64,000 nucleotides of DNA from an uncultured Verrucomicrobiae bacterium (GCA_963812605.1 CAWEWF010000004.1:1-64000); one strand, 5' to 3'; shown: positions 33,901 to 58,129, numbered from the stretch's first letter. Program-made: numbers and translations. The notes: generated from the letters alone by a model not told the origin.

Positions 33901-34380
33901 ATGCGCAAAATTAACACGAAGGACATCGCTGAGGTGTCCTGGTCGTCGCCCAAGGGAAAGTTCGTCGGCGCTGGCAAGGAGGTCTCGGAGGAATTGGGCC
34001 GCAAACCGCAATCGACCGACCTCAAGGAGCGGCACCCTTTCGATGTCGAAATCTGCCGCATCCCGCCGGGCAAGACCCCCTACCCCTATCACTCCCACAG
34101 CGCGCAATGGGAGTTTTACCACGTGATCTCCGGCAAAGGCATCGTCCGCCACAAGGACGGAACGACCGCCATTGAAACCGGCGACGCTTTCCTCTTCCAC
34201 CCCGGCGAACCCCATCAGATTACCAATGACGGCTCCGAAGATCTCATCCTCTACGTCGTCGCGGACAATCCGATTGGCGAATCCTATTACTACCCCGACA
34301 GCAGGAAATGGAGCGTCGCTTCACCCGAGCGCCGAATCATCCGCTCCGATGCCCTCGACTACTACGACGGCGAGGAGTGA
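33901..34380 (+). CDS. Cupin-domain protein
   Basis: PYHSHSAQWEFYHVISG, PGEPHQ, YYPDS..DYYDGEE. Confidence 0.88.
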   Translation: MRKINTKDIAEVSWSSPKGKFVGAGKEVSEELGRKPQSTDLKERHPFDVEICRIPPGKTPYPYHSHSAQWEFYHVISGKGIVRHKDGTTAIETGDAFLFHPGEPHQITNDGSEDLILYVVADNPIGESYYYPDSRKWSVASPERRIIRSDALDYYDGEE

Positions 34381-35802: not shown

Positions 35803-35844
35803 ATCCGCTCCAACGCCCTCGACTATTACGACGGCGAAGAGTGA
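35803..35844 (+). repeat. Dead copy of the cupin gene 3' end
   Basis: 38/42 nt identical to 34339-34380; RSNALDYYDGEE* versus RSDALDYYDGEE*. Confidence 0.92.
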
Positions 35845-36048
35845 ACAGGCTCCGTAGTTTATCACTAATTGGAGGGCGAGCCTCTCGGCAAGCCGCACCT
35901 CTCGATAATTTCCTCTCCCCATTTCCAAGCCGATTGTAGGGCGAGCGCGTCGCTTGCCGTCATTCGCGTCGCTCTTTTATGCTTTCCTCGCGGTTCCGTC
36001 AGGGGTTTAATTACAAGGAGGTATTTGGATCACCATCCAGTGATATTT

Positions 36049-40116: not shown

Positions 40117-40325
40117 AAAGGTCGCGCGCCAATGATCGTCCGCAGGCCGCCTTTGCAGCGAAGGATGACGCGTGGGCTGCTGCCGCCGCCTACGGCTGCG
40201 ACACGAGCCTGCTGGAAGCCAGCCTGCGCCGAACACCTGCGGAACGGGTCCGTGTTCATCGCAGTGCGCTCGCGCTCTTCGAGGCCCTGCAAGGGGCCGG
40301 CAAGCGGCTCTATGGCAAACCTTGA
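40113..40325 (+). CDS. Small protein, putative partner of the nucleotidyltransferase
   Basis: GCDTSLLEASLRRTPAER motif; overlaps the next gene. Confidence 0.6.
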   Translation: MKRSRANDRPQAAFAAKDDAWAAAAAYGCDTSLLEASLRRTPAERVRVHRSALALFEALQGAGKRLYGKP

Positions 40326-40818
40326 AGCGTTGCTCGGGCGATTAGTGAAGCATGACGTCGACTTCGTCATTATCGGCGCCTATGCCTCGGTGGTGCACGG
40401 CGCGACTTTGGTTACGCATGACGTGGACATTTGTTGCTCGTTCACTTCTCGAAATCTCCTGAAGTTGCAAAACGCGATGGCCGGCTTGCATCCGGTTCAC
40501 CGGCTCACGCCGAAACGTCTGCCGTTGCAACTTACGCCCGCGCACTGTCGCGGCTTAAAGAACCTTTACTTGGAAACCGACCTGGGAGTCATTGATTGTC
40601 TCGGTGAAGTGCTCGGCTTGGGGGGTTTTCCAGTCGTGAAAAGACAGAGCGTAATCATCAATCTGGACTTCGGCAAATGTCGCGTCTTGGGACTCGAAGC
40701 GCTCATCAAGGCAAAACGGGCCATGAACCGTCCACGAGATCGCGAAGCGATCGTTCAACTGGAAGCTTTGCGCGTTCGCCAGCGCCGCAACGCCCAAAAA
40801 AAGAAACCAATGGTGTAG
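40312..40818 (+). CDS. Nucleotidyltransferase-family protein (TA-like)
   Basis: FVIIGAYASVVHG..THDVD, LIKAKRAMNRPRD. Confidence 0.75.
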   Translation: MANLEALLGRLVKHDVDFVIIGAYASVVHGATLVTHDVDICCSFTSRNLLKLQNAMAGLHPVHRLTPKRLPLQLTPAHCRGLKNLYLETDLGVIDCLGEVLGLGGFPVVKRQSVIINLDFGKCRVLGLEALIKAKRAMNRPRDREAIVQLEALRVRQRRNAQKKKPMV

Positions 40819-43628: not shown

Positions 43629-43704
43629 GGGGATGTAGCTCAATTGGTAGAGCGCCTCGTTCGCAACGAGGAGGTCAGGGGTTCGAATCCCCTCATCTCC
43701 ACCA
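43629..43704 (+). tRNA. tRNA-Ala(CGC)
   Basis: Complete cloverleaf, G3:U70, CCA end. Confidence 0.97.
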
Positions 43705-43721: not shown

Positions 43722-44658
43722 ATGGGCGACACTTCACTTCTGCCTTCGTCGGACACCGACGCGCTGTTGCGCACGATTGGCAACACGCCGCTCATCCCGC
43801 TCCTGCGCATCGGCCGGGAATTCCCCGGCGTCCGCATTTTCGCCAAGGCCGAGTGGTTTAATCCCGGCGGCTCGGTGAAAGACCGCGCGGCTTACCGCAT
43901 GATTCGCGCCGCCGAGTTGTCGGGCCGGCTCACGCCGGGCAGAATCATCCTCGACGCCACGAGCGGCAATACCGGTATCGCCTACGCGATGATCGCCGCG
44001 CGGCGCGGGTACCGCTGCAAATTACTGATGCCCGCCAATGCCAGCACCGAACGCAAGAAACTCCTCCAGGCGTATGGCGCTGAGGTTGTTCTCACGGACC
44101 CCAGCGAAGGCAGCGACGGCGCGTTCTTCGCAGGCGCAGCGTCTTTACAAGGAGCAACCGGATCTCTACGTGTATCCCGACCAGTACGGGAACACTGAAA
44201 ACCCGCGCGCTCACTACGAAACCACCGGCCCCGAGATCATCGAGCAGACCGCCGGCAAGATTACGCATTTCCTCGCCGGTCTCGGCACGAGCGGTACCAT
44301 GATGGGCACGGGGAAGCGGCTCCGCGAGTTTAACCGCGACATCAAGCTCGTTGCCGTCCAGCCCGATGGCCCGTTTCACGGACTCGAAGGACTCAAGCAC
44401 ATGGAAACGACGTCGCACATCCCCGATTTATACGACGCCAAAGTTCCCGACCAAATCGTCGGTATCTCCACGGAAGCCGCGCAGCAAATGGCCAAACGCC
44501 TGACCCACGAAGAGGGCCTTTATGTCGGCGTGAGCGCCGGCGCCGCCATTTGCGCCGCGCTGAAGATCGCGGCCACGATTCAGGAAGGCGCGCTCGTCGC
44601 CATTTGTCCCGACGCCGGCAACCGTTACCAAAGCGAGAAATTCTGGGAGACTGCATGA
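43722..44658 (+). CDS. cysM: Cysteine synthase (CysM/CysK family), one frameshift near 44130
   Basis: IGNTPL, NPGGSVKDR, TSGNTG, GLGTSGT. Confidence 0.85.
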
Positions 44659-44768: not shown

Positions 44769-44788
44769 GGCGGAGCGGTTCGTTGCAC

Positions 44789-45193
44789 ATGAAACTCTCT
44801 CAACAACTCCTGCATCAAATCCGCCAACACCTCGAAGCGGGGTATCCGAACGAGGCTTGCGGCGTGATGCTGGGGCAAAATGGGATCGTCAGCGAAGTGG
44901 TTTCCGCGGACAATCAGCGCACCGATAGCGCCCGCAATAGGTATCTCATCGATCCGCTGATCTACCTGAAGATCGAGCGGGAGGCCGACAAGCGCGGGTT
45001 GCAAGTGCTCGGCATTTATCATTCGCATCCCGATGTCGCGGCCCGGCCATCGCAGTTTGACCTCGATCACGCGTGGCCCGATTTTTCGTACCTGATCATT
45101 TCGGTCGTCAAAGGCAAAGCGATGGAATCGAATTCCTGGCGGTTGCGGGACGACCGTTCGGCCTTCGACCAGGAGAACATCGAAGTTTTATAA
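44789..45193 (+). CDS. JAB/Mov34 (Mec-like) metallopeptidase
   Basis: YPNEACG, YHSHPD..PS..D. Confidence 0.92.
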   Translation: MKLSQQLLHQIRQHLEAGYPNEACGVMLGQNGIVSEVVSADNQRTDSARNRYLIDPLIYLKIEREADKRGLQVLGIYHSHPDVAARPSQFDLDHAWPDFSYLIISVVKGKAMESNSWRLRDDRSAFDQENIEVL

Positions 45194-45210
45194 AGGCAAC
45201 AGCCGTCTCA

Positions 45211-46269
45211 ATGAGATCTATGGGCAACCACGCGTCCGGTTTTGATTGGGCTGACGGGCTGCACCGATTCAAATTATTCAAACGGCGTTTTGGTCACGGC
45301 CGGGTGCCTGCATACTGGGAAGACGACCCTATTCTGGCCTGGTGGGCAGCCAGGCTGCGCACGCGTTTGGATCGCTTGACACAGGAACAGATCAGGCAAT
45401 TGTATGGCCTAGGTTTTTATTTTGGGTCGGTGCTGACGGCGTGGGTGGGACGTTACTTGGATTTGGCCAAATACCGGACCAGGAACGGTCATTGCAACGT
45501 GACCGAAAGAGTAGACATGTCCCTAGGGCGCTGGGTGCAACATCAACGTGCCCTCAAACATCGCCTGGATGCGCAACGTCTCAAACTGCTAAACCGCCTC
45601 GGATTCGACTGGTCTCCCATCAACACGCTTTGGGGAGAGAGGGTGGCAGAGCTACACACATTTAAGCAAGGACATGGCCATTGCCGCGTGCCACACCATT
45701 ACCCGGAGTATCCCCATCTGGGAATTTGGGTGAGCAACGTGCGCAGGAAGCGCGATAAGCTTTCTCCGCTACGCCGCCGCCAACTGGATCGGATGGGCCT
45801 AAACTGGGCGCCGCTCGCCTCCTCGTGGGAGGCGCGGGTTCAGGAAGCGGTAATGTGGCGAAAGCTTCACGGCAACTGCCAACCACCGTTCGAGTCTCCA
45901 TTAGGGCGCTGGCTGGCCAAGCGACGGGCAGCCTTTGCGGCCGGGAAGCTCAGTCAGCAGCGCAAGCGGCGATTGGAAAAGCTGGGGGTTGAGCTTAGAC
46001 CATTCCAGTCAAGGTGGGAAAGGCGGTTTACAGAACTCAAAGCCTACAGGGCGCGCCATGGTCACTGCAATGTGCCCCGATCCTGCCCAAAGAATCCTGC
46101 TTTGGGTTTTTGGGTAAGCAAGCAACGCTACTTCAAAGATCGTCTCACTCGCAAGCAGATCGTCCGCCTCAACCAACTCGGCTTCCGCTGGCGGATCCGC
46201 CCGCCGAGACCGCCGCGCGGCCGTCACAGTTCGACCTCGGTCACGCGTGGCCCGATTTTTCGTACCTGA
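45211..46269 (+). CDS. Helicase-associated (HA) repeat protein
   Basis: Repeated W...HGHCxVP...LGxWVxxQR...LxxLGFxW units; its stop lies inside the JAB tail copy. Confidence 0.8.
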   Translation: MRSMGNHASGFDWADGLHRFKLFKRRFGHGRVPAYWEDDPILAWWAARLRTRLDRLTQEQIRQLYGLGFYFGSVLTAWVGRYLDLAKYRTRNGHCNVTERVDMSLGRWVQHQRALKHRLDAQRLKLLNRLGFDWSPINTLWGERVAELHTFKQGHGHCRVPHHYPEYPHLGIWVSNVRRKRDKLSPLRRRQLDRMGLNWAPLASSWEARVQEAVMWRKLHGNCQPPFESPLGRWLAKRRAAFAAGKLSQQRKRRLEKLGVELRPFQSRWERRFTELKAYRARHGHCNVPRSCPKNPALGFWVSKQRYFKDRLTRKQIVRLNQLGFRWRIRPPRPPRGRHSSTSVTRGPIFRT

Positions 46270-46370
46270 TCATTTCAGTCGTCAAGGGCAAGGCTGTGGA
46301 GTCGAATTCCTGGCGGCTGCGGGACGACCGTTCGGCGTTCGACCAAGAGGCTGTTGAAATTCTCGCGTAG
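46212..46370 (+). repeat. Dead copy 1 of the JAB gene 3' end
   Basis: AARPSQFDLGHAWPDFSYLIISVVKGKAVESNSWRLRDDRSAFDQEAVEILA* versus live 45038-45193. Confidence 0.95.
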
Positions 46371-46408
46371 ATTATCACCAGCGCCTACGTAGATCCGTGC
46401 GGCGATTA

Positions 46409-46635
46409 TCAACGCAGATTCCGGGAAAATTCCTCCGGGGACAGTCGGATATCCTTGATAATCTGTCGGAGAAGAAACGGCGAAACGTCTCGACCCGCAT
46501 GAAAGGGAACAGTCGTTCCGCGACCGTCAGCATGACGATACTGCTTGTGCGAACCGCGCTGACGGACCTCGACGAACCCAAGTCTTTCAGGACCTTTTCC
46601 ACCTCACGCGCCTTCAGTACCGGGAGCCGGGCCAT
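46409..46635 (-). CDS. HicA-family toxin, 1-bp frameshift near 46577
   Basis: Reconstructed LG/FVEVRQRGSHKQYRHADGRGTTVPFH. Confidence 0.82.
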
Positions 46636-46641
46636 GCATGC

Positions 46642-46848
46642 CTAGACGCTGATGGCTTGCGTTCCGATGAACTCAGCTTCGAGCTGCGGCTCGCCGTCCT
46701 CCAGAAGCATCCCAACAACCTCCTTCAGATTGTCACGCAACTCTTCAAGTGTCGCGCCCTGAGAGTGTGCACCGGGAAACCCGGGAATATATCCCACGAA
46801 CAGGTTCGTCTCCGGGTCACGTTCGACAACGGCGGTGAAGTTTCTCAT
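46642..46848 (-). CDS. HicB-family antitoxin
   Basis: FTAVVERD..PGFPGAHSQGATLEEL; TTGACG-17-TACTTT promoter, leaderless start. Confidence 0.88.
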   Translation of the reverse strand: MRNFTAVVERDPETNLFVGYIPGFPGAHSQGATLEELRDNLKEVVGMLLEDGEPQLEAEFIGTQAISV

Positions 46849-46899
46849 GCCCAGAAAGTACCGTTCCACAAGGGAAACGTCAACCCCACCGCCAAGTTA

Positions 46900-46928: not shown

Positions 46929-46959
46929 GCTAGACTGGGTCTTGCGGGTAATAGCGAAT

Positions 46960-47020
46960 TGTAGGGCAAGCGGCCCGCTTGCCACTTATTAATAGCGCCA
47001 ACCGGGCCGGTTGGCCTACA
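46960..47020. repeat. GTAG REP doublet
   Basis: TGTAGGGCAAGCGGCCCGCTTGCC...GCCAACCGGGCCGGTTGGCCTACA. Confidence 0.7.
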
Positions 47021-47049
47021 AATCGTGTTTGCAAAAAATGGAGAGAACG

Positions 47050-48537
47050 ATGGCTATTAAAGTCACAATTCCAACGGCCTTGCGTCGCTTTGCCAACGGA
47101 CAGACGACGGTCGAGGTGGCCGGCGTAACGATCAACGAGGTGCTCGGCAACCTGACCGCAGAGCATGCCCAGTTGCGGCCCCATCTCTACAGCGAGGACG
47201 GCAAGCTGCGGAATTTCGTGCGCGTGTACGTCAATGACGAGGACATTCGCGCCCGGGGCGACAATGCGCCCGTCAACGAAGGCGACGAGATTTCCATCGT
47301 GCCGTCGATTGCGGGTGGCAACCTTGCCAAACTTGAGCCGATCATCAAAGATCGCGCGAAGCTGACCAATGACGATATCAAGCGGTATTCGCGACACCTG
47401 ATCCTGCCGGAAGTCGGCGTCGAGGGCCAGGAGCGGCTCAAGGCGGCGAAAGTATTGCTCATCGGCTCGGGTGGACTTGGTTCGCCGATCGCGCTATATC
47501 TGACGGCGGCGGGAATTGGGACGATTGGGATGGTCGAGTTCGACACGGTCGATTTCAGCAATCTCCAGCGGCAGATCATTCATTTCACGGGCGACGTGGG
47601 GAAACACAAGCTCCAGAGCGCCGAGGAAAAACTCAAGGCGATCAACCCGAACCTCAATTTCATCCCCCACCCCGTCAAGCTGACGAGCGAGAACGCGCTC
47701 GACATTATCAAGGACTATGACCTCGTCCTCGACGGCACGGACAACTTCCCGACGCGTTATTTGGTCAATGACGCGTGCGTGATGCTCAAAAAGCCGAATG
47801 TGTACGGCTCGATCTTCCGCTGGGAAGGCATGGCCAGCGTGTTCGCGCCGCACCTGGGTGGTCCCTGCTATCGTTGCTGGTATCCCGAACCGCCGCCGCC
47901 GGGGCTCGTTCCGAGTTGCGCGGAGGGCGGCGTGCTCGGCGTCATCTGCGGCATCATTGGCAACATCCAGGCGAACGAAGCCGTCAAGCTCATCATCGGC
48001 AAGGGCAAACCGCTCATGGGCCGGTTGCTGCGGTTTGACGCGATGGACATGAGCTTCCGCGAGTACAAAATTCCGCGCGACCCGAATTGTCCCGTGTGCG
48101 GCAAGAATCCGACCGTAACCGAACTAATTGACTACAACCAATTCTGCGGCATCGGCCGCGGAGAGGACGAAGGTTCCTCAGGAGATTCCATCGTGGAAAA
48201 AGTTGACACGGGCCTCGGCCCCGACGATATCAGCGTCGAGACGCTCAAACAAATGCGCGACCGCAAAGACGATTTTGTCCTCGTCGATGTCCGCAATCCC
48301 GACGAGTTCGAGATTTGCGTCATCGACGGTTCGGTGAAACTTCCCTTACCGGAGTTGCCGCAGCGGTTTCAGGAACTGCCGAAGGACAAGCTCGTGGTCC
48401 TGCACTGCAAGTCCGGTGGCCGTAGCGGCCGCGCGGTGAAATTCCTCAAGACGCAGGGCTACAGTAAGGTCAAGAACGTCGCCGGCGGCATCAATGCCTG
48501 GGCCGAACGCATCGACCCGGACGTGCCGCAGTATTAA
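47050..48537 (+). CDS. moeB: MoaD/CysO-MoeB(ThiF)-rhodanese fusion (MoeZ-like)
   Basis: Ubiquitin-like domain ending VPSIAGG; RYSRHL, GSGGLG, SNLQRQ, CYRC, CPVC; rhodanese HCKSGGRS. Confidence 0.93.
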   Translation: MAIKVTIPTALRRFANGQTTVEVAGVTINEVLGNLTAEHAQLRPHLYSEDGKLRNFVRVYVNDEDIRARGDNAPVNEGDEISIVPSIAGGNLAKLEPIIKDRAKLTNDDIKRYSRHLILPEVGVEGQERLKAAKVLLIGSGGLGSPIALYLTAAGIGTIGMVEFDTVDFSNLQRQIIHFTGDVGKHKLQSAEEKLKAINPNLNFIPHPVKLTSENALDIIKDYDLVLDGTDNFPTRYLVNDACVMLKKPNVYGSIFRWEGMASVFAPHLGGPCYRCWYPEPPPPGLVPSCAEGGVLGVICGIIGNIQANEAVKLIIGKGKPLMGRLLRFDAMDMSFREYKIPRDPNCPVCGKNPTVTELIDYNQFCGIGRGEDEGSSGDSIVEKVDTGLGPDDISVETLKQMRDRKDDFVLVDVRNPDEFEICVIDGSVKLPLPELPQRFQELPKDKLVVLHCKSGGRSGRAVKFLKTQGYSKVKNVAGGINAWAERIDPDVPQY

Positions 48538-48619
48538 GCGGCGGTTCAGGGTTCTCGGTTCTAGGTTGTAGAATCCTACGACGTACTTCCGGTCAATGGC
48601 CTCTGGGAGCGCGGACGAT

Positions 48620-49303
48620 TTAATCTCTAGCTGTTTTGATCAATTTCTTAAGCCACCATGGTGACCACAATGTCCAATTGGAACGCCCAAGAAGAAGCCC
48701 CGTGATGATGAAAATCATCCAGTTCGCGTAAAACGCCCACCACGAAAGATCCAGCCGATCGCTGAGGAAAAACCCTGTATCGCTTCTGTGAAACACAAAC
48801 AGACGGACCAACTTCACCATGATTGTGCCAATTAAACCAAGGCTGCTGATCCATAACAAAGTCCATTTGGTATGCCAACGGGCAAAGCCAATAACAAGGC
48901 CACTGATGGTAAAAGTCGTAAAAGTAACGTAATTCGGAAGCCAGACCGCCCGCGACGGATGTGAAAGCGAATCCAAGCCGCTCGTATGCCAGATGAATGA
49001 CGTGCCCAAGCTCAACATCGGTGTCATCACCAAACCGAGGACGCCCGTCCAAAACAACGACCATTGGGGTAATACACACGCCATTCCGCAGATTTTCTTG
49101 AACTCGACCTTGAGTTCGTCGGCATGACCCATTCGCTGAACCGAATTCTCAAAGGCTTGTGGCGGATTTGTCCCCGCTTTCATCTGAAGCTCAATTTCTT
49201 CCCGCAAATGAATTTCCAGTTCTTCCAGCGGCACGGGCGTTTTGATTCCGGCGGCGAGCATTTGTTTTCGCCAATCAGCAATTGATTGTTCGAGATCAAA
49301 CAT
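48620..49303 (-). CDS. Permease-prefix-domain-1 membrane protein
   Basis: MFDLEQSIADWR..ELEIHLREE plus TM segments; downstream of PadR. Confidence 0.75.
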   Translation of the reverse strand: MFDLEQSIADWRKQMLAAGIKTPVPLEELEIHLREEIELQMKAGTNPPQAFENSVQRMGHADELKVEFKKICGMACVLPQWSLFWTGVLGLVMTPMLSLGTSFIWHTSGLDSLSHPSRAVWLPNYVTFTTFTISGLVIGFARWHTKWTLLWISSLGLIGTIMVKLVRLFVFHRSDTGFFLSDRLDLSWWAFYANWMIFIITGLLLGRSNWTLWSPWWLKKLIKTARD

Positions 49304-49628
49304 ATTGCTCCTTTTTCAAGCCGGCCAAAACGGAATGCACCAGCGACCATTGTTCGTGATGCTTGGCCATCGCCGTTTTGCCGTCCTTTTTGAGCAAGTA
49401 ATATTTCCGCTTCCGCCCGGTCTCGCTTTCCGCCCATCGCGACTTGATCAAGCCCCGGTGTTCCATGCGGTGCAGCACCGGGTACAGCATGCCGTCCGTC
49501 CAGTTTAGTTTGCCATCCGAGCGCTCTTTGACTTCTTGAATGATGGCGTAACCGTAACTCTCGCCCTTGGCGAGCAGCGACAAAATCAGCGGTTCAGCCG
49601 ATGCGGCGACCAGTTCTTTGCGAATCAT
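49296..49628 (-). CDS. PadR-family transcriptional regulator
   Basis: ESYGYAI, GMLYPVLHRME, RKRKYY. Confidence 0.92.
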   Translation of the reverse strand: MIRKELVAASAEPLILSLLAKGESYGYAIIQEVKERSDGKLNWTDGMLYPVLHRMEHRGLIKSRWAESETGRKRKYYLLKKDGKTAMAKHHEQWSLVHSVLAGLKKEQYV

Positions 49629-49634
49629 AGAGAC

Positions 49635-49663
49635 ACGATACATAGACGTTATATGTATGTCAA
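49635..49663 (-). promoter_or_regulatory. Sigma70 promoter (leaderless) with an overlapping putative PadR operator
   Basis: TTGACA-17-TATCGT, 6 nt before ATG; ATACATA-N7-TATGTAT palindrome. Confidence 0.7.
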
Positions 49664-49676
49664 GCGGGAAAAATGA

Positions 49677-49718
49677 GGCTCGGTGAAACTCCTGTTACCG
49701 GAGTTGCCACAGTACTAG
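49677..49718 (+). repeat. Dead moeB 3'-end copy A (internally deleted)
   Basis: GSVKLLLPELPQY* joins live 48328-48363 (GSVKLPLPELPQ) to the terminal PQY*. Confidence 0.85.
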
Positions 49719-49760
49719 AAGTCGGCAGGTTGTGTAGCGGCCAGCGACACCGCTCCGCGA

Positions 49761-50393
49761 CTACACGGGCTGCGGGGTGTAGCGAAGATACGGCTTCACT
49801 TTGCGAACGCCTTTGGGAAATAATTTCTCCGCATCCGTGTCGGACACCGCTGTCACGACGATGCAGTCCTGCCCTTGTTTCCAGTCCGCCGGCGTGGCCA
49901 GCTTGTGACGAGCCGTTAATTGCAGCGAATCGATCACCCGCAGGATTTCGGCAAAATTGCGGCCCGTGCTGGCCGGGTACGTCAGGGTCAATTTGATCTT
50001 CTTGTCGGGGCCAATGACAAACACCGACCGCACCGTGGCCTTGTCGTCCGCGTTCGGATGAATCATGTCATACGCCGTCGCGACCTGGCGTTTTTCATCC
50101 GCGATCACCGGGAAGTTCATCGTGCAGGCTTGCGTTTCATTGATGTCCTCGATCCAGTCGTGGTGCTTTTCCAGCGGGTCCACGCTGACCGCCATCACCT
50201 TGACATTCCGCTTTTCAAATTCGGTCTTGATCTTGGCCACCGTTCCGAGTTCGGTGGTGCAAACGGGAGTGAAATCGGCCGGATGCGAGAACAGGACGCC
50301 CCAGGAATCGCCCAGCCATCGGTGAAACTCAATCATCCCTTCGGTGGTGGGGGCTATAAAATTGGGAGCAACATCGCCTAATCGTAATGCCAT
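49761..50393 (-). CDS. 1-Cys peroxiredoxin (Prx6)
   Basis: FSHPADFTPVCTTE, YPASTGRNF, ATPADW. Confidence 0.95.
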   Translation of the reverse strand: MALRLGDVAPNFIAPTTEGMIEFHRWLGDSWGVLFSHPADFTPVCTTELGTVAKIKTEFEKRNVKVMAVSVDPLEKHHDWIEDINETQACTMNFPVIADEKRQVATAYDMIHPNADDKATVRSVFVIGPDKKIKLTLTYPASTGRNFAEILRVIDSLQLTARHKLATPADWKQGQDCIVVTAVSDTDAEKLFPKGVRKVKPYLRYTPQPV

Positions 50394-50500
50394 AGTGGTA
50401 CCCTTCTCTTGTCGGACATTTCTGGATTGCTTACGTCCCGCGACTCTCGCTCGCCACATAGTATCCCCTCGCACAGTGCTTTCAAGTTTTTTGTGGGCCA

Positions 50501-50553
50501 CCGAAAGACATGCTCGTGGTCCTGCACTGCCATTCTGGTGACCGCAGTACTAG
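50501..50553 (+). repeat. Dead moeB 3'-end copy B (internally deleted)
   Basis: PKDMLVVLHCHSGDRS versus live PKDKLVVLHCKSGGRS (48379-48426); ends CCGCAGTACTAG. Confidence 0.85.
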
Positions 50554-50592
50554 GGCACGGTTTTGGGTTCGCGGTTCACGGTTCACGATCAT

Positions 50593-50621
50593 TGTAGCCG
50601 CGAATCGCATTCGCGGCTACA
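50593..50621. repeat. Single GTAG REP hairpin preceded by GGTTCAC-like heptamers
   Basis: TGTAGCCGCGAATCGCATTCGCGGCTACA. Confidence 0.75.
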
Positions 50622-50726
50622 AACGGCGGCTGGCTCGTCAATGGCCGTGTCCAGATGCGCCCGCATGTTCCTGCCACGATTCTGTGCGCTTGCCGGCATC
50701 TGGCCGCGTTGGCATACTCCGCGTCA

Positions 50727-51305
50727 ATGGCTTCGGAGAAAGACTTGGCGATTTCGGTTGAACGGCTCGGCGGTCTCATCTACGAGATTCGCGGCCAGAA
50801 GGTGATGCTTGACCGCGATTTGGCGATCGTCTATGGCGTCGCAACCCGAGATCTGAATAAGGCCGTGAAACGCAACCGCGACCGGTTCCCGGCGGATTTC
50901 GCATTTCAGCTTACCCGGCAAGAGGTTGCAGACTTGAAGTTCCAAATTGGAACATCAAGTTCGCAGCACGGTGGCCGGCGCAAACCGCCATGGGCGTTCA
51001 CCGAGCACGGCGCGATCATGGCCGCCAACGTGCTCAACAGCCCACGCGCCGCGCAGATGAGCGTCTTCGTAGTCCGCGCGTTCGTGAAGATGCGCGCGGT
51101 GCTATCAGACAACCGGGAACTCGCCGGCAAACTCGCTGCCTTGGAGAAGGAGCTTAAGGACCGCCTCGGCGTTCACGAAGCCGCCATCGTCACGATTCTC
51201 CAGCGCGTCATGGACATCATCGACCCGCCCGCCTTGCCGGAGCCGCCGAAGAAGGGCATCGGATTTCAGGTGAAGCAAGCCAAAACACGCTATCTGGTCC
51301 GCTAG
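50727..51305 (+). CDS. ORF6N-domain DNA-binding protein
   Basis: IRGQKVMLDRDLA..AVKRN..RFPADF..AFTEHG. Confidence 0.9.
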   Translation: MASEKDLAISVERLGGLIYEIRGQKVMLDRDLAIVYGVATRDLNKAVKRNRDRFPADFAFQLTRQEVADLKFQIGTSSSQHGGRRKPPWAFTEHGAIMAANVLNSPRAAQMSVFVVRAFVKMRAVLSDNRELAGKLAALEKELKDRLGVHEAAIVTILQRVMDIIDPPALPEPPKKGIGFQVKQAKTRYLVR

Positions 51306-51322
51306 CACGACTCGGGGCAAGT

Positions 51323-51379
51323 ACCGGGGGAATCGACGCCTGGGCCGAACGCATCGACCCGAACGTCCCGCAGTACTGA
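51323..51379 (+). repeat. Dead moeB 3'-end copy C
   Basis: 48/57 nt identical to 48481-48537; TGGIDAWAERIDPNVPQY*. Confidence 0.92.
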
Positions 51380-51415
51380 GGCGGTTGCAGGAAACATGGT
51401 GCACCTTAACAATAT

Positions 51416-52030
51416 ATGAAACTGGCTAAGCTGCAAGAAACCAAGTCCACGATTCGCTTCCGTGCCAAGTTGTTTCGGCCCAAGGCAACCGAAAAGATTG
51501 GATCGTGGACCCTGCTAACTCTGCCCAAGAACGCGAGTGCGAAGCTTCCATCACGAGGCATGACGATGGTTGAGGGAACTATCAATGGCTTTCCTTTTCG
51601 AGCCGCTCTCGAACCAGACGGGAAAGGAAGTCACCGGCTCAGGGTTAACAAAGCCATGCACGATGCTGCAGACGCAGACGCTGGAGACACGGTAACGGTG
51701 GAGATTACGCGGGCCGGGGAAGAACCGGAGATCCGGGTGCCAATGGATCTACGCCAAGCCCTGGCAGCTGCCCCGCTGGCGCAGGCAGGGTGGGAGGACA
51801 TCACACCCATGGCGCGCCGGGACTGGATTTTCTCGATAAGCTCAGCCAAGCAACCGGAAACGCGTCGGCGCCGGATCGAGAAAGCGTGCGACATGCTGGC
51901 CTCTGGAAAGCGACGATTATGTTGTTTTCCCGGTATAAAGTGGCTTATGAAAAAAAACGCAAAATCATGCGGAATGTGGCTTCCCTTGCCGAACTCAAAA
52001 AATCGTTTTTCGTCGAGATCGACAAAGTAG
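51416..52030 (+). CDS. DUF1905 plus YdeI/OmpD-associated domain protein
   Basis: LPSRGMTMVEGTING, VPMDL..AL, ARRDW..AKQPETRRRRIEK. Confidence 0.85.
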   Translation: MKLAKLQETKSTIRFRAKLFRPKATEKIGSWTLLTLPKNASAKLPSRGMTMVEGTINGFPFRAALEPDGKGSHRLRVNKAMHDAADADAGDTVTVEITRAGEEPEIRVPMDLRQALAAAPLAQAGWEDITPMARRDWIFSISSAKQPETRRRRIEKACDMLASGKRRLCCFPGIKWLMKKNAKSCGMWLPLPNSKNRFSSRSTK

Positions 52031-52099
52031 AAAACCGCCAAGATTTGGAGAAACTGCGCGTGAAGTATTTGAGTCATTGGTCACTGGGTCAACCCAGTA

Positions 52100-52240
52100 G
52101 AGGCCGTTGAAAAACCAATGAATCTTTGCCTCCGGTTGTAGGCCGACTCTGTGAGTCGGCGATTTCTTTAAGGATTTCGCCGCTTCGCAGAAGCGGCCTA
52201 CAGGCCGGGCGGTCGGAATGTGACATTTTTCAACAGCCTC
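52100..52240. mobile_element. MITE with 15-bp TIRs and AGTA target duplication, enclosing a REP doublet
   Basis: GAGGCCGTTGAAAAA / TTTTTCAACAGCCTC; AGTA on both flanks; TGTAGGCCG...CGGCCTACA inside. Confidence 0.75.
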
Positions 52241-52446
52241 AGTACACTGGGCAGTTGACGTAACTGGGACCCGCGCCCCTACAGGAAACTGACCGATTGC
52301 CGCAAAGCCGAGTCCGCGAGACCTGCGCAGCAAAACCATATTGTGGCGAGTCGTGCCGCGAATGTTGCGCTCCGATATCGTAAACCGATAATTTTGCTGG
52401 ACAGCGTGTTGGGGGATGGATATAGTCGGGGAACCGGGAACAAATG

Positions 52447-52820
52447 AACGCTCAACTTCCAACGCTCAACGCCCAATTTTCATGGGACCGGGGTAAAGGC
52501 GTCCGACTTCGCGAGGGCAGCAAATACCCCTCACCTCAATCCTTTTCCGTACACGACAACGGGTTTGCCGCGGAAGCACAACGTGCGGCGTCTCGCGGAC
52601 TCGGCTCGTCCAACTCGGCTCCCCCAAGAGGAGAGACAGGAGGCGAGCGGAGCGGCAAAGCTGCGACAAGTCGCAGCACTCCAAAGGGGGACGCCGGGCC
52701 GACCCGAAAGGCTACAGGCGGGACGCCTGTTCAACTCGAAAACGGAAGGACACGGGCGGGACGCCCGCGCCACTATCAGAGGGGAAGAGCCCCCCTATAT
52801 GTTTTTGCGAAACGAACCCA
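52447..52820. repeat. Cluster of short palindromic and heptamer repeat remnants
   Basis: AACGCTC tandem, GCTGCGACAAGTCGCAGC, ACAGGCGGGACGCCTGT, CGGGCGGGACGCCCG. Confidence 0.55.
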
Positions 52821-53015
52821 CCGGGAGGGGGTTTTGAGGGTCCTTTTTAATGAAAAGTGGATTTGTTTACGAAGAATAAAGCCATGTCGCGGGTACAAAG
52901 GACGGTGTTCGCGGAACGCCAACAGTCTTGTGATTCTGTGGCGCTCTCGGTAATGTCTGGCGAACCGATGGCGGCGATCCATCGGGTTCGAAACGCAATT
53001 AACGAGGATTCCATC

Positions 53016-54509
53016 ATGATCGACCAACCCATGACCCGTCGTGAAGCGTTGAAGACGGCGACTGCCATCGGCGTTTCTGCGGCGCTGTCTCCCCTGGCCG
53101 CGCTGGCGGACGCGGCCACGACCGAACCGGCGGTCCGCAGGGCCGCCACCATCTCCATTGCGACGAGCCCGGCTCCGTTTGCGCGCCAGGACGTCGGCAA
53201 GCTGCTCGACGACCTCCAACAACGGGCGGGCGTGAATGTGATCCTCCCGTTCATGTATACCCACGGAGCGGTGCGGGCGGGTCTGCCGGCGGAGGGATTT
53301 CGCGGCGGAAATTTCGCCATCCCGCACATGGAATATTACAAGGACACGGGCCTCACGTACGACGATATGCGCGGCACGGAATTTGGCGATGTGGATGTGT
53401 TCGCCCGCCTGATTCCCGCGGCCCACAAACGCGGCATCAAGACTTTCGGGTGGATCATCGAGGACAACCGACGCCCCGCCATCCCGCATTGGGAACCGCT
53501 GTACGAGGTTGATTTCTATGGCCGGCGCGCGGAAAGCCATCCCGGCGGCCCGTGCTACAATAATCCCCGCTATCGCGCCTGGCTTCTGGGACTCGTGGAA
53601 GATTACGCCCATTCCTATGAAATCGATGGCATCATGTGGGGATCGGAACGGCAGGGCGCATTCTTCAATGCGCTCGGCGCCCAGCTTGATGGCGCAAAGA
53701 CCGATCCCGGCAAGGTCACCTGCTTCTGCATATACTGTGTGAAGAAAGCCGAGGGCCTGGGGATCGACGTTGAGCGGGCGCGGCGCGGGTTCGGGGAACT
53801 GGAAACGTTCGTCCGCAACGGCCGGGCCAATCAGCGTCCCCGGGACGGATACTTTGTCGTTTTCTGGCGGCTGTTGCTAAAGTACCCCGAACTGCTGGCG
53901 TGGGACAACCTGTGGGTCACCAGCCGTCATGAAATGCAACGCGATCTTTACCAGAAGATCAAATCGATCAAGCCGTCGCTCATCGTCGGCTGGCACTTGT
54001 GGCACAATTTGTCGTTCAGCCCATTTCACCGGGCGGAAGAAGACTACGCGGAGATGACCGGCTGGTCTGATTTCATCCGGCCCGCGCTGTATAGCAATTG
54101 CGCCGGCGAACGCATGCGCAGCTTCGTGGACAGCACGCATGGCAACGTCTTTGGCGACGTGCCTCCCGGCCAAACGCTCGATCTGCTGTACCGGGTGCTC
54201 GATTACCAGGAAGCACCGTACGACAAGGTGACGTCCACGGGGTTCACTGCCGACTATGTTCTGCGGGAAACCCGGCGTACGCTGGAAGGCGTCGCCGGCA
54301 CGTCGACGCAGGTCTGGCCGGGGATCGACATCGACGTACCCGTGCACGCTGGTACCAGCCAATGCACGCCGGAGAGCGTCAAACAGGAAGTGCTCGCCGT
54401 CTTCAAGGCCGGCGCCCAGGGAATCATGCTCTCACGCAACTATGTTGAGATGAAACCCGAGAACCTCGCCGGTGCCGGCGCCGCATTGCGGGAACTCGGA
54501 CTGCGTTGA
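53016..54509 (+). CDS. Tat-exported protein, probable glycoside-hydrolase-like TIM barrel
   Basis: TRREALK Tat motif, GAGGA RBS, CYNNP.YR, IDGIMWGSE, CFC..C. Confidence 0.7.
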   Translation: MIDQPMTRREALKTATAIGVSAALSPLAALADAATTEPAVRRAATISIATSPAPFARQDVGKLLDDLQQRAGVNVILPFMYTHGAVRAGLPAEGFRGGNFAIPHMEYYKDTGLTYDDMRGTEFGDVDVFARLIPAAHKRGIKTFGWIIEDNRRPAIPHWEPLYEVDFYGRRAESHPGGPCYNNPRYRAWLLGLVEDYAHSYEIDGIMWGSERQGAFFNALGAQLDGAKTDPGKVTCFCIYCVKKAEGLGIDVERARRGFGELETFVRNGRANQRPRDGYFVVFWRLLLKYPELLAWDNLWVTSRHEMQRDLYQKIKSIKPSLIVGWHLWHNLSFSPFHRAEEDYAEMTGWSDFIRPALYSNCAGERMRSFVDSTHGNVFGDVPPGQTLDLLYRVLDYQEAPYDKVTSTGFTADYVLRETRRTLEGVAGTSTQVWPGIDIDVPVHAGTSQCTPESVKQEVLAVFKAGAQGIMLSRNYVEMKPENLAGAGAALRELGLR

Positions 54510-54525
54510 CCACGAGGAGAATTGT

Positions 54526-55509
54526 ATGCGCTATCGGAATTTGGGGCGGACAGGTTGGAAAGTTTCTGAAATCAGCTTCGGCGCTTGGGCCATCGGCGGA
54601 ACCTGGGGAGCTGTCGACGACCAGGAATCGATTGCGGCGCTTCATCGCGCAATCGATCTGGGCATAAACTTCATCGACACCGCTGACGTGTACGGCGACG
54701 GGCGTAGCGAGCGGCTTGTCGGCAAAGTGGTCCGGGAACGTTCCGAGAAGATCATCGTGGCGACAAAAGCGGGCCGGCGTCTTTCGCCACACACTGCGGA
54801 CGGCTACAACAAGCGCAATCTCACCGGCTTCATCGAACGCAGCCTGCGGAATCTCGGCACCGATTGTCTCGACCTGCTGCAATTGCACTGTCCGCCAACG
54901 GAAGTGTATTACCGGCCGGAAGTTTTCGAGGCATTGGACGACATCGCGAAGGCCGGCAAGATCCATCATTACGGCGTCAGCGTCGCGACCGTGGAAGAAG
55001 GACTGAAAGCCATCGATTACCCGCATGTCCAGAGCGTGCAGATTATCTTCAACATGTTCCGGCATCGTCCCGCCGAATTGTTCTTCGCGGAGGCCAAACG
55101 CCGCAAGGTCGGCATTTTAGCGCGTGTCCCGCTCGCGAGCGGTTTGCTGACCGGTAAGATGACGCGGCAAACAAAATTCAGCGCGGACGATCACCGGAAG
55201 TTTAATCGTCACGGCGAAGCTTTCGACCGCGGCGAAACTTTCTCCGGCGTGGACTACGAGACCGGATTGAAAGCCGTGGAAGAACTGAAACGGCTCACCC
55301 CGAAAGGCGCGACCCTCGCACAATTCGCGCTGCGTTGGATTCTCATGTTCGACGCCGTAACCTGCGCCATCCCCGGCGCCAAACGTCCCGACCAAGCCGA
55401 GCAAAACATCCGCGCCTCTTCACTTCCCCGCCTGAACCGCGCCACGATGCTGAAAGTCGAGGCCATCTACAACAAATACATTCGCCCCCAAGTGCATCAT
55501 CGATGGTAA
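54526..55509 (+). CDS. Aldo/keto reductase
   Basis: LGRTGWKVSEISFG, DTADVYG, LQLHCP, IPGAK. Confidence 0.93.
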   Translation: MRYRNLGRTGWKVSEISFGAWAIGGTWGAVDDQESIAALHRAIDLGINFIDTADVYGDGRSERLVGKVVRERSEKIIVATKAGRRLSPHTADGYNKRNLTGFIERSLRNLGTDCLDLLQLHCPPTEVYYRPEVFEALDDIAKAGKIHHYGVSVATVEEGLKAIDYPHVQSVQIIFNMFRHRPAELFFAEAKRRKVGILARVPLASGLLTGKMTRQTKFSADDHRKFNRHGEAFDRGETFSGVDYETGLKAVEELKRLTPKGATLAQFALRWILMFDAVTCAIPGAKRPDQAEQNIRASSLPRLNRATMLKVEAIYNKYIRPQVHHRW

Positions 55510-55514
55510 GGGAC

Positions 55515-55832
55515 TCACAACTCCGTGGCAAAGCGGAGCGCCAGCTTGATCTTGGCAAGCAAGTCCGGGCTCAGCGTGCCGATCTTACGTTCCAGTCGCA
55601 CGGTAGGCACCGAGCCGATGCCCTGCACGTTGGCCACCGTTTTTTCTTTCAGGAAAGTCTGATCACCGAGAACGACTTCGTAAGAGCTGTCGCGATTTTG
55701 CGTCGTGAGAGGGACATAAATGACCAGAGCACGCGGAGCCTGGGGATCGTAACGGGAAAGAATGACAACAGGGCGGGTCTTCGCAGCCAAGCCGAGATCG
55801 GCCATCCAGACTTCACCGGGTTTCGCGTTCAT
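55515..55832 (-). CDS. PemK/MazF-family toxin
   Basis: GEVWMADLG..KTRPVVILS..VPLTT. Confidence 0.88.
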   Translation of the reverse strand: MNAKPGEVWMADLGLAAKTRPVVILSRYDPQAPRALVIYVPLTTQNRDSSYEVVLGDQTFLKEKTVANVQGIGSVPTVRLERKIGTLSPDLLAKIKLALRFATEL

Positions 55833-55998
55833 CGAGAATATTGAGCACGTCTTGCTCGGCTTCCCGCGAGCGCGCCACATCCAGCGCATCGCGATCAGCC
55901 AACTCTATGATCTCGGCGACGCGACGCTCCACTTCCTTGGCGGTCTGTGGCTGCCATTGCTTCAGCTTGTCGTCGAGCTTTTGGGCGATTGCCGTCAT
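55813..55998 (-). CDS. Putative antitoxin
   Basis: 61 aa, upstream of and overlapping the toxin gene. Confidence 0.65.
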   Translation of the reverse strand: MTAIAQKLDDKLKQWQPQTAKEVERRVAEIIELADRDALDVARSREAEQDVLNILDERETR

Positions 55999-56048
55999 GC
56001 GCCTGTAAGATTAGTCCGTATTCCATCCAACGTTAATCCGCGCTACGA

Positions 56049-57248
56049 CTACTCTTTTGCCCCGTGTTGGCGCAACAAATCGACTGCGTCCATCCGTTTG
56101 ATTTGCAGGGCAAATTGCAGCGGCGTTTTGCCATCCGGCCCCTTGGCGTTTGGATCAGCGCCGGCCTGCAAGAGGTAGGCAAGATTTTCGGCCGTTCGCT
56201 GTCCCGCGGCTCTCATCAACGCAGTCTGCCCGCGCCCGTCGGCCGCATTGACATTGCCACCGGCCTGCACGAAAGCCCGGAGCCAATCGAGGTCGGCCAT
56301 GGCGGCGTGCACGGTGACTTGATCCAGCAATTGCGGTGCAGCCGTGGCCACCAGACCGGCCAGTTCCGCGGGTCCTTTGTCCGCCGCCGCCAGTAGCGCT
56401 TCACCCGACGGCCATTGCGGGGCGGCACATTGCTTGACCATCCTCTTAATCGATGAGTCCATCTTCTTTCGCACCTGGGCCAGAACGGCCTGGCTATTGG
56501 CACCCGGTATCGCCGCCAGACCGGCGGCAAGAGCGTGCGAACTCCGGGCCGACATCATCATTCCGATGGCCAGACAATAAAGCTCTGCCGTTGCTGGGCT
56601 TTTCGCCGCGGGGGGAGCGGCTGCGGCGGCCTCCGCAATTCTCTCCTGATCGTCAACTCGCTCCGCTTCCGTAATGCCCTTGCCAACGAGGCGGAACGTT
56701 TGCGCGTCTTCCAGGCTTTCGGCTCCTTCCTCCTTGAAGTATTTGAAGCCCAAGTGAAGCCGCGCCTGGTCCATGCCCAGCAGCGGCGCGAGGTCCACCA
56801 GGATCTCCTCGGCAAACCCGTATTCGTCCGGACGATGAAGTATCTTGTCAACGTCTTCGAGCCGCGTGCCGCTGACGCAATGGTTCAGAATCGCCTGCGG
56901 GTTGCCACGACACCGTTTCCGCGTCTTCTCATTCGCGGGTTCAAAATAATCCGGATTCGAATTATATTCGTCCGCAATCTCACCCCGCTCATAAAGGTAA
57001 TAAATCAGGATGTCGCTATCGTGGTCGAGAAAGGCGAAGACCGTCGTGGAAAGCTCCTTGGAAATGACCTTGGCGAGACGTTGCAGCTCTCGCTCGTCCT
57101 GGTCGTCGGAAGTCTCGTCATAGACGGTCACCCAGCCATCTTTTGGAGGGGAAACATAGGCGCGCGTCTTTACTGAACGAGCCACGACATCCATCACCTT
57201 TTCCGCCGAATCGGAACGCACCTGATAATTTGTGAAGAATGCACCCAT
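56049..57248 (-). CDS. Ankyrin-repeat-containing protein
   Basis: C-terminal GQTALMRAA, GADPN, GKTPLQFA. Confidence 0.8.
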   Translation of the reverse strand: MGAFFTNYQVRSDSAEKVMDVVARSVKTRAYVSPPKDGWVTVYDETSDDQDERELQRLAKVISKELSTTVFAFLDHDSDILIYYLYERGEIADEYNSNPDYFEPANEKTRKRCRGNPQAILNHCVSGTRLEDVDKILHRPDEYGFAEEILVDLAPLLGMDQARLHLGFKYFKEEGAESLEDAQTFRLVGKGITEAERVDDQERIAEAAAAAPPAAKSPATAELYCLAIGMMMSARSSHALAAGLAAIPGANSQAVLAQVRKKMDSSIKRMVKQCAAPQWPSGEALLAAADKGPAELAGLVATAAPQLLDQVTVHAAMADLDWLRAFVQAGGNVNAADGRGQTALMRAAGQRTAENLAYLLQAGADPNAKGPDGKTPLQFALQIKRMDAVDLLRQHGAKE

Positions 57249-57343
57249 GGTTGCCGGTAGAAGTTTAAGACAGCGAACGCCTCGAAGGTCAACGGCAGAT
57301 TCGGCGCTTCACAGAACCGCCGCTACAACAGTATATTGCCAAC

Positions 57344-58129
57344 ATGTCCATTCATCCGACAGCCATCATCAGCAAGACGGCGGAACTCGATTCGTCGGTT
57401 GACGTGGGAGCGAATGCGATCATCGAGGAGCACGTGAAGATTGGCGCGGGGACGCGGATTTGGGCGAATGCGTATCTCACGGGACACACGGAGATCGGGC
57501 GGGACAATGAAATCCACATGGGCGCGGTGATCGGGCATGAACCGCAGGATTTGAAATTCGACCGCACATGCCGCAGTTATTTGAAGATCGGCGACCGCAA
57601 CGTATTTCGCGAATATTGCACGGTGCATCGCGGGACGGAGCCGGAGAGCGCGACGGTCATCGGCAACGAGTGCTACCTGATGGCGACGGCGCATGTCGGC
57701 CACAATTGCGTCATCGGCAACCACGTGATCATCTGCAATTGCGCCTTGGTCGCGGGGCATGTCCATATCGGCGACCGCGCGTTCATTTCCGGCGGTGTGG
57801 TGATTCACCAATTCACGCGTGTGGGACGCCTGGCGATGTTTTCGGGCAACGCGCGCGTCTCGATGGACGTGCCGCCGTTCACACTGGCGGCGGAGCGAAA
57901 CGAGATTCACGCGCTGAACCTGGTGGGCCTGCGGCGGATGAAAATCTCTCGCGAAGCAATTGCGGAATTGAAGCAACTTTACCAGTTGTTCTATCTATCA
58001 GGTTCAAACGGCACACAAGCCTTGAAGGAAGCATCGGCGGATGGCGCGTACAAAACAACCGAGGCCCGGGAATTCATCGAGTTCGTGCGCCACTCGCCGA
58101 ACGGGATTTGTCCACCGCCGCGGACGTAA
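57344..58129 (+). CDS. lpxA: UDP-N-acetylglucosamine acyltransferase
   Basis: IHPTAII, hexapeptide repeats, PQDLK, VHRGT, HVGHNC, IHQF. Confidence 0.9.
   Translation: MSIHPTAIISKTAELDSSVDVGANAIIEEHVKIGAGTRIWANAYLTGHTEIGRDNEIHMGAVIGHEPQDLKFDRTCRSYLKIGDRNVFREYCTVHRGTEPESATVIGNECYLMATAHVGHNCVIGNHVIICNCALVAGHVHIGDRAFISGGVVIHQFTRVGRLAMFSGNARVSMDVPPFTLAAERNEIHALNLVGLRRMKISREAIAELKQLYQLFYLSGSNGTQALKEASADGAYKTTEAREFIEFVRHSPNGICPPPRT

Follow-up and report, generated by a model that had tools for sequence, protein, structure and literature searches.

Within a 64-kb stretch of a Verrucomicrobiia-like genome (soil-type Verrucomicrobium; CAWEWF010000004.1:1-64000, one strand, hereafter the window), the sulfur-carrier gene moeB, encoding a ThiS-ThiF-rhodanese fusion, is followed by three partial copies of its own 3′ end (copies A, B, and C), all on the forward strand and interspersed with small cargo genes. 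In order, the 3′ side of moeB holds a membrane protein and a PadR regulator, copy A, a peroxiredoxin, copy B, an ORF6N-domain protein, copy C, and a DUF1905/OmdA protein (Table 1). We confirm that the tail copies are genuine, and we read the array as a product of serial Campbell-type accretion at the moeB 3′ end, in which each event would have displaced the prior end, followed by slippage deletions in copies A and B; to this reading as a whole we give a slightly better than even chance.

Tail copies downstream of moeB

The live moeB gene encodes a C-terminus ending ..DPDVPQY, followed by TAA (end sequence CAGTATTAA), and its closest MoeB proteins, 83–93% identical at the protein level, come from Verrucomicrobiia metagenome bins of soil and peat. 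The original prediction, made from the sequence alone, had both the gene order and the family names right, as judged by profile matches of the window open reading frames (ORFs). In what follows, negative tail positions are counted from the end of the moeB stop codon, and relatives (coded L001, L002, etc.) are the moeB loci of other genomes. A repeat search matched 49677-49712 in copy A to moeB 48328-48363 (36 nt, 86%), 50501-50547 in copy B to 48379-48425 (47 nt, 85%), and 51324-51380 in copy C to 48482-48538 (57 nt, 86%), with self-BLAST E-values over the whole window of 5.5e-4, 3.0e-7, and 1.1e-12, respectively. The predicted start points of A and B (~210 and ~160 bp before the stop) and their lengths of 42 and 53 bp agree with the alignment, which gives −209 and −158, and the 57-nt match of copy C indeed reaches the stop uninterrupted.

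Chance similarity was ruled out on three grounds, namely the self-BLAST, a shuffled-sequence control, and a shared end motif. For the control, the sequence from 48561 to 57343 was shuffled 400 times with its dinucleotide content kept and the best match to the moeB tail was scored (mean 22.5 bits, maximum 32.2 bits); the real scores of 34.2 (A), 44.1 (B), and 60.0 bits (C) were reached by 0/400 shuffles, so that A and B, whose significance the original prediction had left to such a control, and C as well, are significant. The 12-nt motif CCRCAGTAYTRR occurs four times in the 64 kb, always on the forward strand (48526, 49707, 50542, and 51368) and at the four ends only, with an expected count of 0.03 and at least four copies in 0/100 shuffles, while CAGTACTAG is found in the window only after A and B. 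The description of four PQY* ends needs correction: the live gene stops with TAA and copy C with TGA, and the terminal PQY* of copy B is out of frame with the upstream part of that copy.

The copies read as variants of the moeB coding sequence. Four codons of copy A differ from the live gene, three of them synonymously; copy C encodes GGIDAWAERIDPNVPQY*, with five synonymous and two non-synonymous codon changes; and copy B holds a variant active-site loop (CH..) that is also found in relative L003. The longest exact matches to the live gene are 14, 19, and 24 nt for A, B, and C, respectively. Beyond the stop, the GCGGTT..CAGG likeness between the live gene and copy C was correctly described, but the flank of copy B proved homologous to the live flank too, sharing its GGTTC repeats. 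Such GGTTC runs, with a spacing of ~7 nt, lie right after the moeB stop in the live gene (48541-48570), in copy B (50558-50590), and in relative L002 (11489-11540), where moeB is followed by the same kind of flank, including the TGTAG hairpin.

Table 1. Positions of the moeB array, its cargo, and other displaced gene ends in the window
Feature	Position	Strand	Details
DEAD-box helicase	30665-31888	−	two dead copies of the last ~100 nt: 29994-30093 and 29203-29302
Cupin end, 42 nt	34339-34380 and 35803-35844		1464 nt apart, 90% identical, both ending TGA
JAB (Mov34/MPN) array	44783-46370	+	live gene 44783-45193, HA (helicase-associated-domain) cargo gene, dead JAB tail 46195-46370
Live moeB, ThiS-ThiF-rhodanese fusion	47011-48537	+	ThiF 5.2e-79, Rhodanese 1.4e-20, ThiS 1.1e-12
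Internal TGCCGCAG, left copy of 8-nt direct repeat	48356-48363	+	right copy 48524-48531, 168 nt away
Mosaic end of live moeB	48448-48537	+	allelic affinity unlike the rest of the gene
Native post-stop flank of live moeB	48538-48580	+	GGTTC repeats ~7 nt apart, then a short TGTAG hairpin
Cargo unit 1, 1139 bp	48538-49676	−	membrane protein without family 48620-49303; PadR regulator 49296-49643 (PadR 2.3e-23)
Copy A, 42 bp	49677-49718	+	moeB −209 to −174, joined at CCACAG to TACTAG
Cargo unit 2, 782 bp	49719-50500	−	1-Cys peroxiredoxin 49761-50393 (AhpC-TSA 8.4e-31, 1-cysPrx_C 3.7e-08)
Copy B, 53 bp	50501-50553	+	moeB −158 to −112, joined at CCGCAG to TACTAG
Post-stop flank of copy B	50554-50622	+	GGTTC repeats and a perfect 14-bp-stem REP hairpin; aligned to live flank
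Cargo unit 3, 770 bp	50554-51323	+	ORF6N-domain protein 50655-51305 (ORF6N 6.7e-32)
Copy C	51324-51391	+	unbroken moeB tail, −55 to stop (TGA), plus 12 nt of flank common with the live gene
Cargo unit 4, DUF1905 + OmdA (YdeI-like) protein	51416-52030	+	OmdA 8.3e-22, DUF1905 6.6e-20
Palindromic element around REP pair	52088-52259		arms resembling moeB end and C-type flank: 52088-52115 (+), 52217-52259 (−)
550-aa protein without family	52857-54509	+	
lpxA-like acyltransferase, conserved right flank	57344-58129	+	Hexapep, Acetyltransf_11

Copies A and B contain internal gaps, which we mapped by gapped alignment to the live moeB tail. In both, an internal moeB segment is joined to the terminal CAGTACTAG, with an implied loss of 168 nt that keeps the frame in A and of 106 nt that shifts it in B. 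In its last 216 nt, live moeB has just two 8-mers that are present twice; TGCCGCAG is one of them, and its copies end at −174 and −6, the exact edges of the gap in A. At the B junction the live allele reads CCGTAG and six of nine relatives have CGCAG, so a donor allele would have carried CCGCAG there, a 6-nt repeat at a distance of 106 nt from the terminal copy; in the alignment check, the homology of B did not extend back to the CCGCAG site. The prediction that A and B are longer tails lacking an internal piece between CCGCAG-type repeats is thus supported at both copies. It had also supposed that long tails are trimmed to ~50 bp as a rule, which does not hold, given that other dead tails measure ~155–176 nt (JAB), ~100 nt twice (DEAD-box helicase), 42 nt (cupin), and 114 nt (in relative L010). 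Its suggestion that trimming would stabilize the cargo is weakened, as homology to the live gene is already poor: at 85–86% identity and with exact matches of 14, 19, and 24 nt, the tails would recombine poorly with the live gene even without deletions.

The same junctions could be read differently, with A, B, and C as parts of one displaced tail, running from −209 to the stop, that was split twice, an explanation we find quite improbable. The peroxiredoxin and ORF6N segments, each starting with a donor moeB end (TACTAG plus flank), would have been inserted at internal CCGCAG sites by microhomology-mediated illegitimate joining with small target deletions, so that the jump to the terminal sequence would be part of the insertion, an alternative the original prediction had itself raised. 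The pieces do lie in gene order without overlap (A, −209 to −174; B, −158 to −112; C, −55 to 0), show much the same divergence from the live gene (86, 85, and 86% identity), and both inserted segments start with the identical CAGTACTAG; one-sided microhomology joints are also given, in the portion of PMC3240628 cited here, as the signature of homology-facilitated illegitimate recombination. However, the tail does not continue past the right-hand junctions: the sequence of 15 nt that precedes B is unlike CGGTTTCAGGAACTG, which is near-invariant in nine relatives, and 56 nt are missing before C; hence, two extra deletions would be needed anyway. A donor fragment with a moeB end should, moreover, pair with the true end and not with a 6–8-nt internal match, and copy C ends in TGA whereas both inserts carry TAG.

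Allelic tails and serial accretion

To characterize the divergence, eight live/dead pairs were compared, comprising A, B, C, and five further displaced tails described below (JAB, cupin, two DEAD-box helicase tails, and the leuA tail of L001). Differences by codon position were 14/11/48, corresponding to 44 synonymous and 21 non-synonymous codon changes, and the third-position excess is significant both against 1/3 (p = 1.5e-8) and against 0.45 (p = 2.8e-4). The retained dead-tail segments contain no stops and no frameshifts, and dead-copy variants (CH in the rhodanese loop, ID and PN near the end) are present in the live genes of relatives. As the differences are in excess at third positions and mostly synonymous, a local duplication that then decayed was ruled out; the copies are instead foreign or older alleles, the live and dead tails having diverged while both were coding and been brought together by transfer. 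The identities of A, B, and C to the alleles of nine relatives differ by only 1–5 nt, which leaves the donor lineages indistinguishable.

Tails that are allelic variants, such as co-occurring species carry, would also be expected if the contigs of co-occurring related strains, each broken in the conserved moeB, had been strung together during assembly. All near relatives in the collection are metagenome bins, and a +1 frameshift in the neighboring cysteine synthase gene hints at sequence error. Even so, we hold an artefact of this kind to be highly improbable, as joins at 6–8-nt repeats are far below the overlap of any assembler, cargo units 1 and 2 are complete transcription units ending just past promoter-like sites, the same structure is found at four loci of the window and in other assemblies (L001 and L010), and there are no Ns or abrupt coverage proxies.

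The end of live moeB is itself a mosaic. Across 184 informative sites, the ratio of L010/L001-type to L004/L006-type states is 128:42 to the left of −96/−89 and 4:10 to the right (Fisher 6e-4; statistic reached in 33/5000 permutations), and in a sliding comparison L004 is 89% identical to live moeB over the last 90 nt and 79% overall, so that the live end is recombinant. This breakpoint coincides with none of the dead-tail starts (−209, −158, and −55), as predicted by crossovers falling anywhere in shared homology but not by a fixed att core at the left edge of the newest tail.

In the reading we favor, at least four small units (membrane protein plus PadR, peroxiredoxin, ORF6N, and DUF1905/OmdA) would have been added between moeB and lpxA, each by recombination within the last 50–210 nt of moeB. 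The incoming DNA would have brought an allelic moeB end of its own, together with a stop codon and a post-stop flank, and this would have become the new live end, and the previous end would have been pushed downstream as a 5′-truncated dead tail, that is, the topology of the e14 prophage in icd, repeated in series. We infer that C, B, and A are successive former moeB ends, from oldest to newest, and that replication slippage, or else microhomology-mediated deletion, between direct CCGCAG repeats later removed 168 nt from A and 106 nt from B. The dead tails themselves would be scars, for which any function is putative at most. The agent of recombination is the least secure part of this account; within the account, we consider homology-guided recombination moderately probable and preferable to a dedicated integrase, whether by Campbell-type entry of a circle or by a double crossover with the dead tail of the donor as a portable right-hand arm.

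Site-specific accretion by a trans-acting recombinase is the least improbable of the alternatives and a serious one, though still unlikely. Integrase-less cassettes, resembling cis-mobilizable elements (CIMEs) or the pseudo-staphylococcal cassette chromosome (pseudo-SCC), would have entered at a CCGCAG/TAC core at the moeB stop, and A and B would be products of that enzyme too, through recombination of the terminal core with similar internal cores of a longer tail. This would account for the one 12-nt motif at the stop of all four ends, for an internal site at −174 that matches the terminal site at 13/15 positions (CCGGAnnTGCCGCAG), and for the duplication of 3′ ends alone; a TrwC relaxase remnant at 486-1502 and the parallels with e14/icd, partial-tRNA arrays, and SCC composite islands at rlmH, as these are described in the portions of the literature cited below, point the same way. 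It would also account for the common right end of both gaps, but so do the few direct repeats in the tail, given which no special site is needed. The dead tails have three different starts and constant right ends, the breakpoint of the live gene matches none of these starts, and four unrelated target genes in 64 kb would need several specificities, while by eye no motif is common to the boundaries of the different arrays.

Nor is a candidate enzyme seen nearby. No integrase, resolvase, or transposase family (Pfam) was found in 21 + 60 + 20 window ORFs (101 ORF scans), a negative limited to the window ORFs scanned, the 60 being part of the 139 window ORFs of at least 125 aa, and no integrase or transposase family was found in the 31 of 56 ORFs scanned from the moeB-lpxA gaps of relatives. 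The only mobility genes among the window ORFs scanned are TrwC relaxase fragments (486-2352). The array is also unlike an integron in several respects: there is no IntI/integrase family in the ORFs scanned, the array begins at the moeB stop codon, its boundaries are homologous to moeB coding sequence, and an inverted-repeat scan found no palindrome at either A or C and, after B, just a repetitive extragenic palindromic (REP) hairpin of a genome-wide type.

Several observations weigh against serial accretion or against homology as its guide. In moeB coordinates the three copies keep the gene order and do not overlap, and the dead tails become shorter the farther they lie from the gene, a pattern that independent events would give only through coincidence (1 in 6 as regards the order) or age-related erosion. 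Copies A and B both end in TACTAG, which is the ending in 0/9 relatives and which two donors would have to share. Of 64 loci that include the complete 3′ end of moeB and 1.5 kb or more of downstream sequence, none has a copy of the moeB tail, so no intermediate state is seen, and the mosaic live tail could stem from an unrelated allelic exchange. As regards the agent, the recombining tails differ by 10–22% with longest exact matches of 11–36 nt, a poor RecA-type substrate; no gene heads are duplicated in the window by self-BLAST, a polarity that an integrase explains by design and homology only via selection; and, for this genome, the recombinase negative covers the scanned window ORFs only. 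Finally, dead tRNA-Ala 3′ ends lie ~335 nt downstream of tRNA-Ala(CGC) in L005 (7435-7466) and L010 (7570-7608). A dead tRNA 3′ end is the classic integrase-type scar, and these two speak for integrase-type events in the clade and, thus, for the site-specific alternative.

The hotspot, other displaced tails, and cargo

The moeB-lpxA stretch is a variable insertion hotspot. The two genes are 13 bp apart in L008, 0.4–2.9 kb apart in six other relatives, and 8.8 kb apart in the window, and the gaps of relatives have no common cargo except fragments of the 550-aa gene (L001 and L027); L002 looks like a near-empty site. As in hotspots without mobility genes, content varies between conserved genes, the flank has a recombination signal, and no integrase or transposase family is present in the ORFs scanned. 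The 550-aa gene is probably an older moeB neighbor, since moeB is directly followed by 158 nt from the 5′ part of this gene in L001 and by a 79-nt fragment of it in L027. Against 12 close loci, the window moeB tail had no match outside the live genes, and the tails of nine relatives gave only 14–15-nt matches in their own loci; among the 64 loci, three exact matches of 14–15 nt in L038 and L061 (E 0.002–0.01) were taken as chance. The moeB end of L010 (11470-11506) reads through the usual stop after two apparent single-base insertions, and both moeB and JAB are split into several frames in that locus, probably by long-read indel errors.

Besides the moeB array, this genome has other displaced-tail scars at integrase-free hotspots. 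Self-comparison of the window for direct repeats returned only domain repeats within genes, REP hairpins, and gene tails, the last comprising those of moeB (three), JAB (one), a DEAD-box helicase (two), and a cupin (one). At JAB, where the dead tail spans 155–176 nt, the HA reading frame continues into it in another frame. The dead tail matches close relatives at 124–125/150 positions and the live tail at only 114–120/150; the dead tail is thus clade-typical and the live one odd, and the incoming DNA therefore supplied a new live end and displaced the native one. A tail replacement of the e14/icd type is therefore indicated at JAB, and at moeB the live end is mosaic. The cargo between the two dead helicase tails includes a ParE-family toxin ORF (30301-30600), and a peptidase-S41-like gene lies on the opposite strand between the cupin ends. 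In L001, a 37-nt leuA tail (2443-2479) is repeated (3189-3225) after a 228-aa gene without family; this gene also follows leuA in the window (38539-40818; 62.5% identical), where no dead leuA tail follows it, and is absent in L002, L004, and L005.

An automated census of tail duplications, deliberately strict in that the repeat must end ~10 nt or less from the stop, found three in the window (missing JAB and the three moeB copies), three in 10 close loci totaling 206,787 nt, of which one is a tRNA-Ala end read as an ORF, and eight in 1,113,387 nt of 70 other loci, which belong to other phyla and in which several of the matches are not tail scars. The 21 ORFs followed up from the out-of-window matches include an IS1595 transposase (L013) and housekeeping genes (L035), meaning that not all matches are scars, and among them none of the matches encloses an integrase. 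The scar density of the window is partly a product of selection, the window having been chosen because of the moeB array.

Cargo unit 1 has a GC content of 0.48–0.50, compared with 0.57–0.61 in moeB. A promoter-like TTGACA-17-TATCGT at 49663-49635 adjoins copy A, and a promoter-like TTGAAA-16-TACTAT at 50485-50458, in unit 2, adjoins copy B; both units end 13–15 nt past their own promoter-like −35 boxes, which suggests that deletion removed whatever was not needed. Downstream of unit 4, the arms of the palindromic element at 52088-52259 may be further, weaker relics of the moeB end: the inverted arm scored 26, reached by 9/500 shuffles, and the direct arm, not significant alone, scored 20, reached by 171/500.

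REP hairpins follow the live gene, A, and B, that is, three of the moeB ends, and occur elsewhere. REP-like hairpins starting TTGTAG were noted in intergenic DNA at 5799-5858, 22947-23011, 35928-35958, 46953-46983, 50591-50622, and 52137-52202. REPs carry a 5′ GTAG and are moved by REP-associated tyrosine transposases (RAYTs); no Y1 (IS200-like) transposase family was found among the window ORFs scanned.

Elsewhere in the window, TrwC relaxase fragments and an AAA_30 helicase-like protein extend across several ORFs at 486-3227 and look like a decayed conjugative element. The two hotspots hold further toxin-antitoxin-like cargo: between moeB and the dead JAB tail there is a HicB-like ORF accompanied by a small partner (46375-46869), and between an aldo-keto reductase and an ankyrin gene a PemK/MazF-like ORF (55515-55889). 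An Rfam scan found only tRNA-Ala (tRNA-Ala(CGC), 43629-43704), after which relatives have ~1 kb that the window lacks. Upstream of JAB, the cysteine synthase (PALP) gene is divided into two frames at ~44100-44135 by one apparent extra base (+1), compared with a single ORF in L001, and is either a pseudogene or the product of a sequencing error.

Relation to known systems

Most bacterial gene gain takes place at few hotspots, many of them without a recognizable mobile element, and the addition of genes, as opposed to their swapping, is poorly understood. The displaced ends described here provide a readable record of each event, including its order, crossover point, and donor allele, and the presence of several scarred protein-coding genes in 64 kb without integrases allows a test of whether plain homologous recombination can build cassette arrays. 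The scars also allow us to ask how direct repeats around cargo later become disarmed. If they are ordinary integrase footprints, their value would be smaller, that of a list of new attachment sites from a soil phylum that is uncultured. A more speculative and, in our view, doubtful extension is that the units are ‘tail-flanked cassettes’, in which cargo lies between two copies of the 3′ end of one conserved gene without a recombinase of its own. The upstream gene would be the left arm and the dead tail a portable right arm, enabling ordinary RecA recombination to add the cargo behind that gene, with nothing replaced, in any relative and whatever lies downstream. Arrays of this kind would grow by accretion and be stabilized by divergence and tail deletions, forming an integrase-free analogue of integron or SCC cassettes at many housekeeping genes of this verrucomicrobial lineage.

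A close single-event counterpart is e14 in icd of E. coli K-12 (icd/icdC), for which the cited portion of PMC13626634 describes an insert that supplies an alternative 3′ end, with the old C-terminal fragment kept as a pseudogene at the far side and mostly conservative changes between the two. The JAB array has exactly this polarity. However, e14, as described there, is a prophage of 15 kb that has a site-specific system of its own and inserted once, whereas the units here measure 0.7–1.1 kb, stand at least four in series with no recombinase gene found, and include two tails with internal deletions.

Successive insertion is seen in the tycheposons of Prochlorococcus, where, in the cited portion of bioRxiv 10.1101/2020.12.28.424599, successive integrations at one site push older elements inward, with partial target-gene copies between them, and degenerate remnants persist. 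The likeness to the moeB array lies in these successive insertions separated by partial copies of the target gene. The Prochlorococcus arrays, as portrayed in that excerpt, have tRNA targets and tyrosine recombinases, while here the targets are protein-coding, the tail starts vary, and no integrase was found.

Cassettes of the SCC and ssrA types are each bounded by a repeat of the gene's end. The direct repeat shared with the target 3′ end likewise bounds units 1–3 here, as in arrays formed by tandem site-specific accretion. Tandem cassettes at the 3′ end of one housekeeping gene, some without their own recombinase, are described for the SCC composite islands at rlmH in staphylococci (bioRxiv 10.1101/336396, PMC13739063) and for the ssrA islands of Dehalococcoides (PMC3146451). 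The repeats of those islands are short, constant cores that dedicated serine recombinases, encoded in at least one cassette, cut; the repeats here consist of diverged coding sequence and measure 36–57 nt, after an original 56 to at least 210 nt.

Hotspots without mobility genes, with variable content between core genes and a flanking core gene bearing a recombination signal, are described in the cited portion of PMC5635113. In the form given there, a double crossover at two flanking genes replaces the content and leaves no duplicated ends, whereas the dead tails here need a Campbell-type event or one with two arms from one gene. Word searches of the open-access literature returned no description of integrase-free arrays of protein-gene tails. 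To the extent covered by the excerpts cited above, arrays built in this way are known, in the presence of a recombinase, at tRNA and tmRNA genes and at a few genes that encode proteins; the difference here lies in the combination of more than one protein-coding target, very small cargo, and long allelic tails that start at different points, with no recombinase seen.

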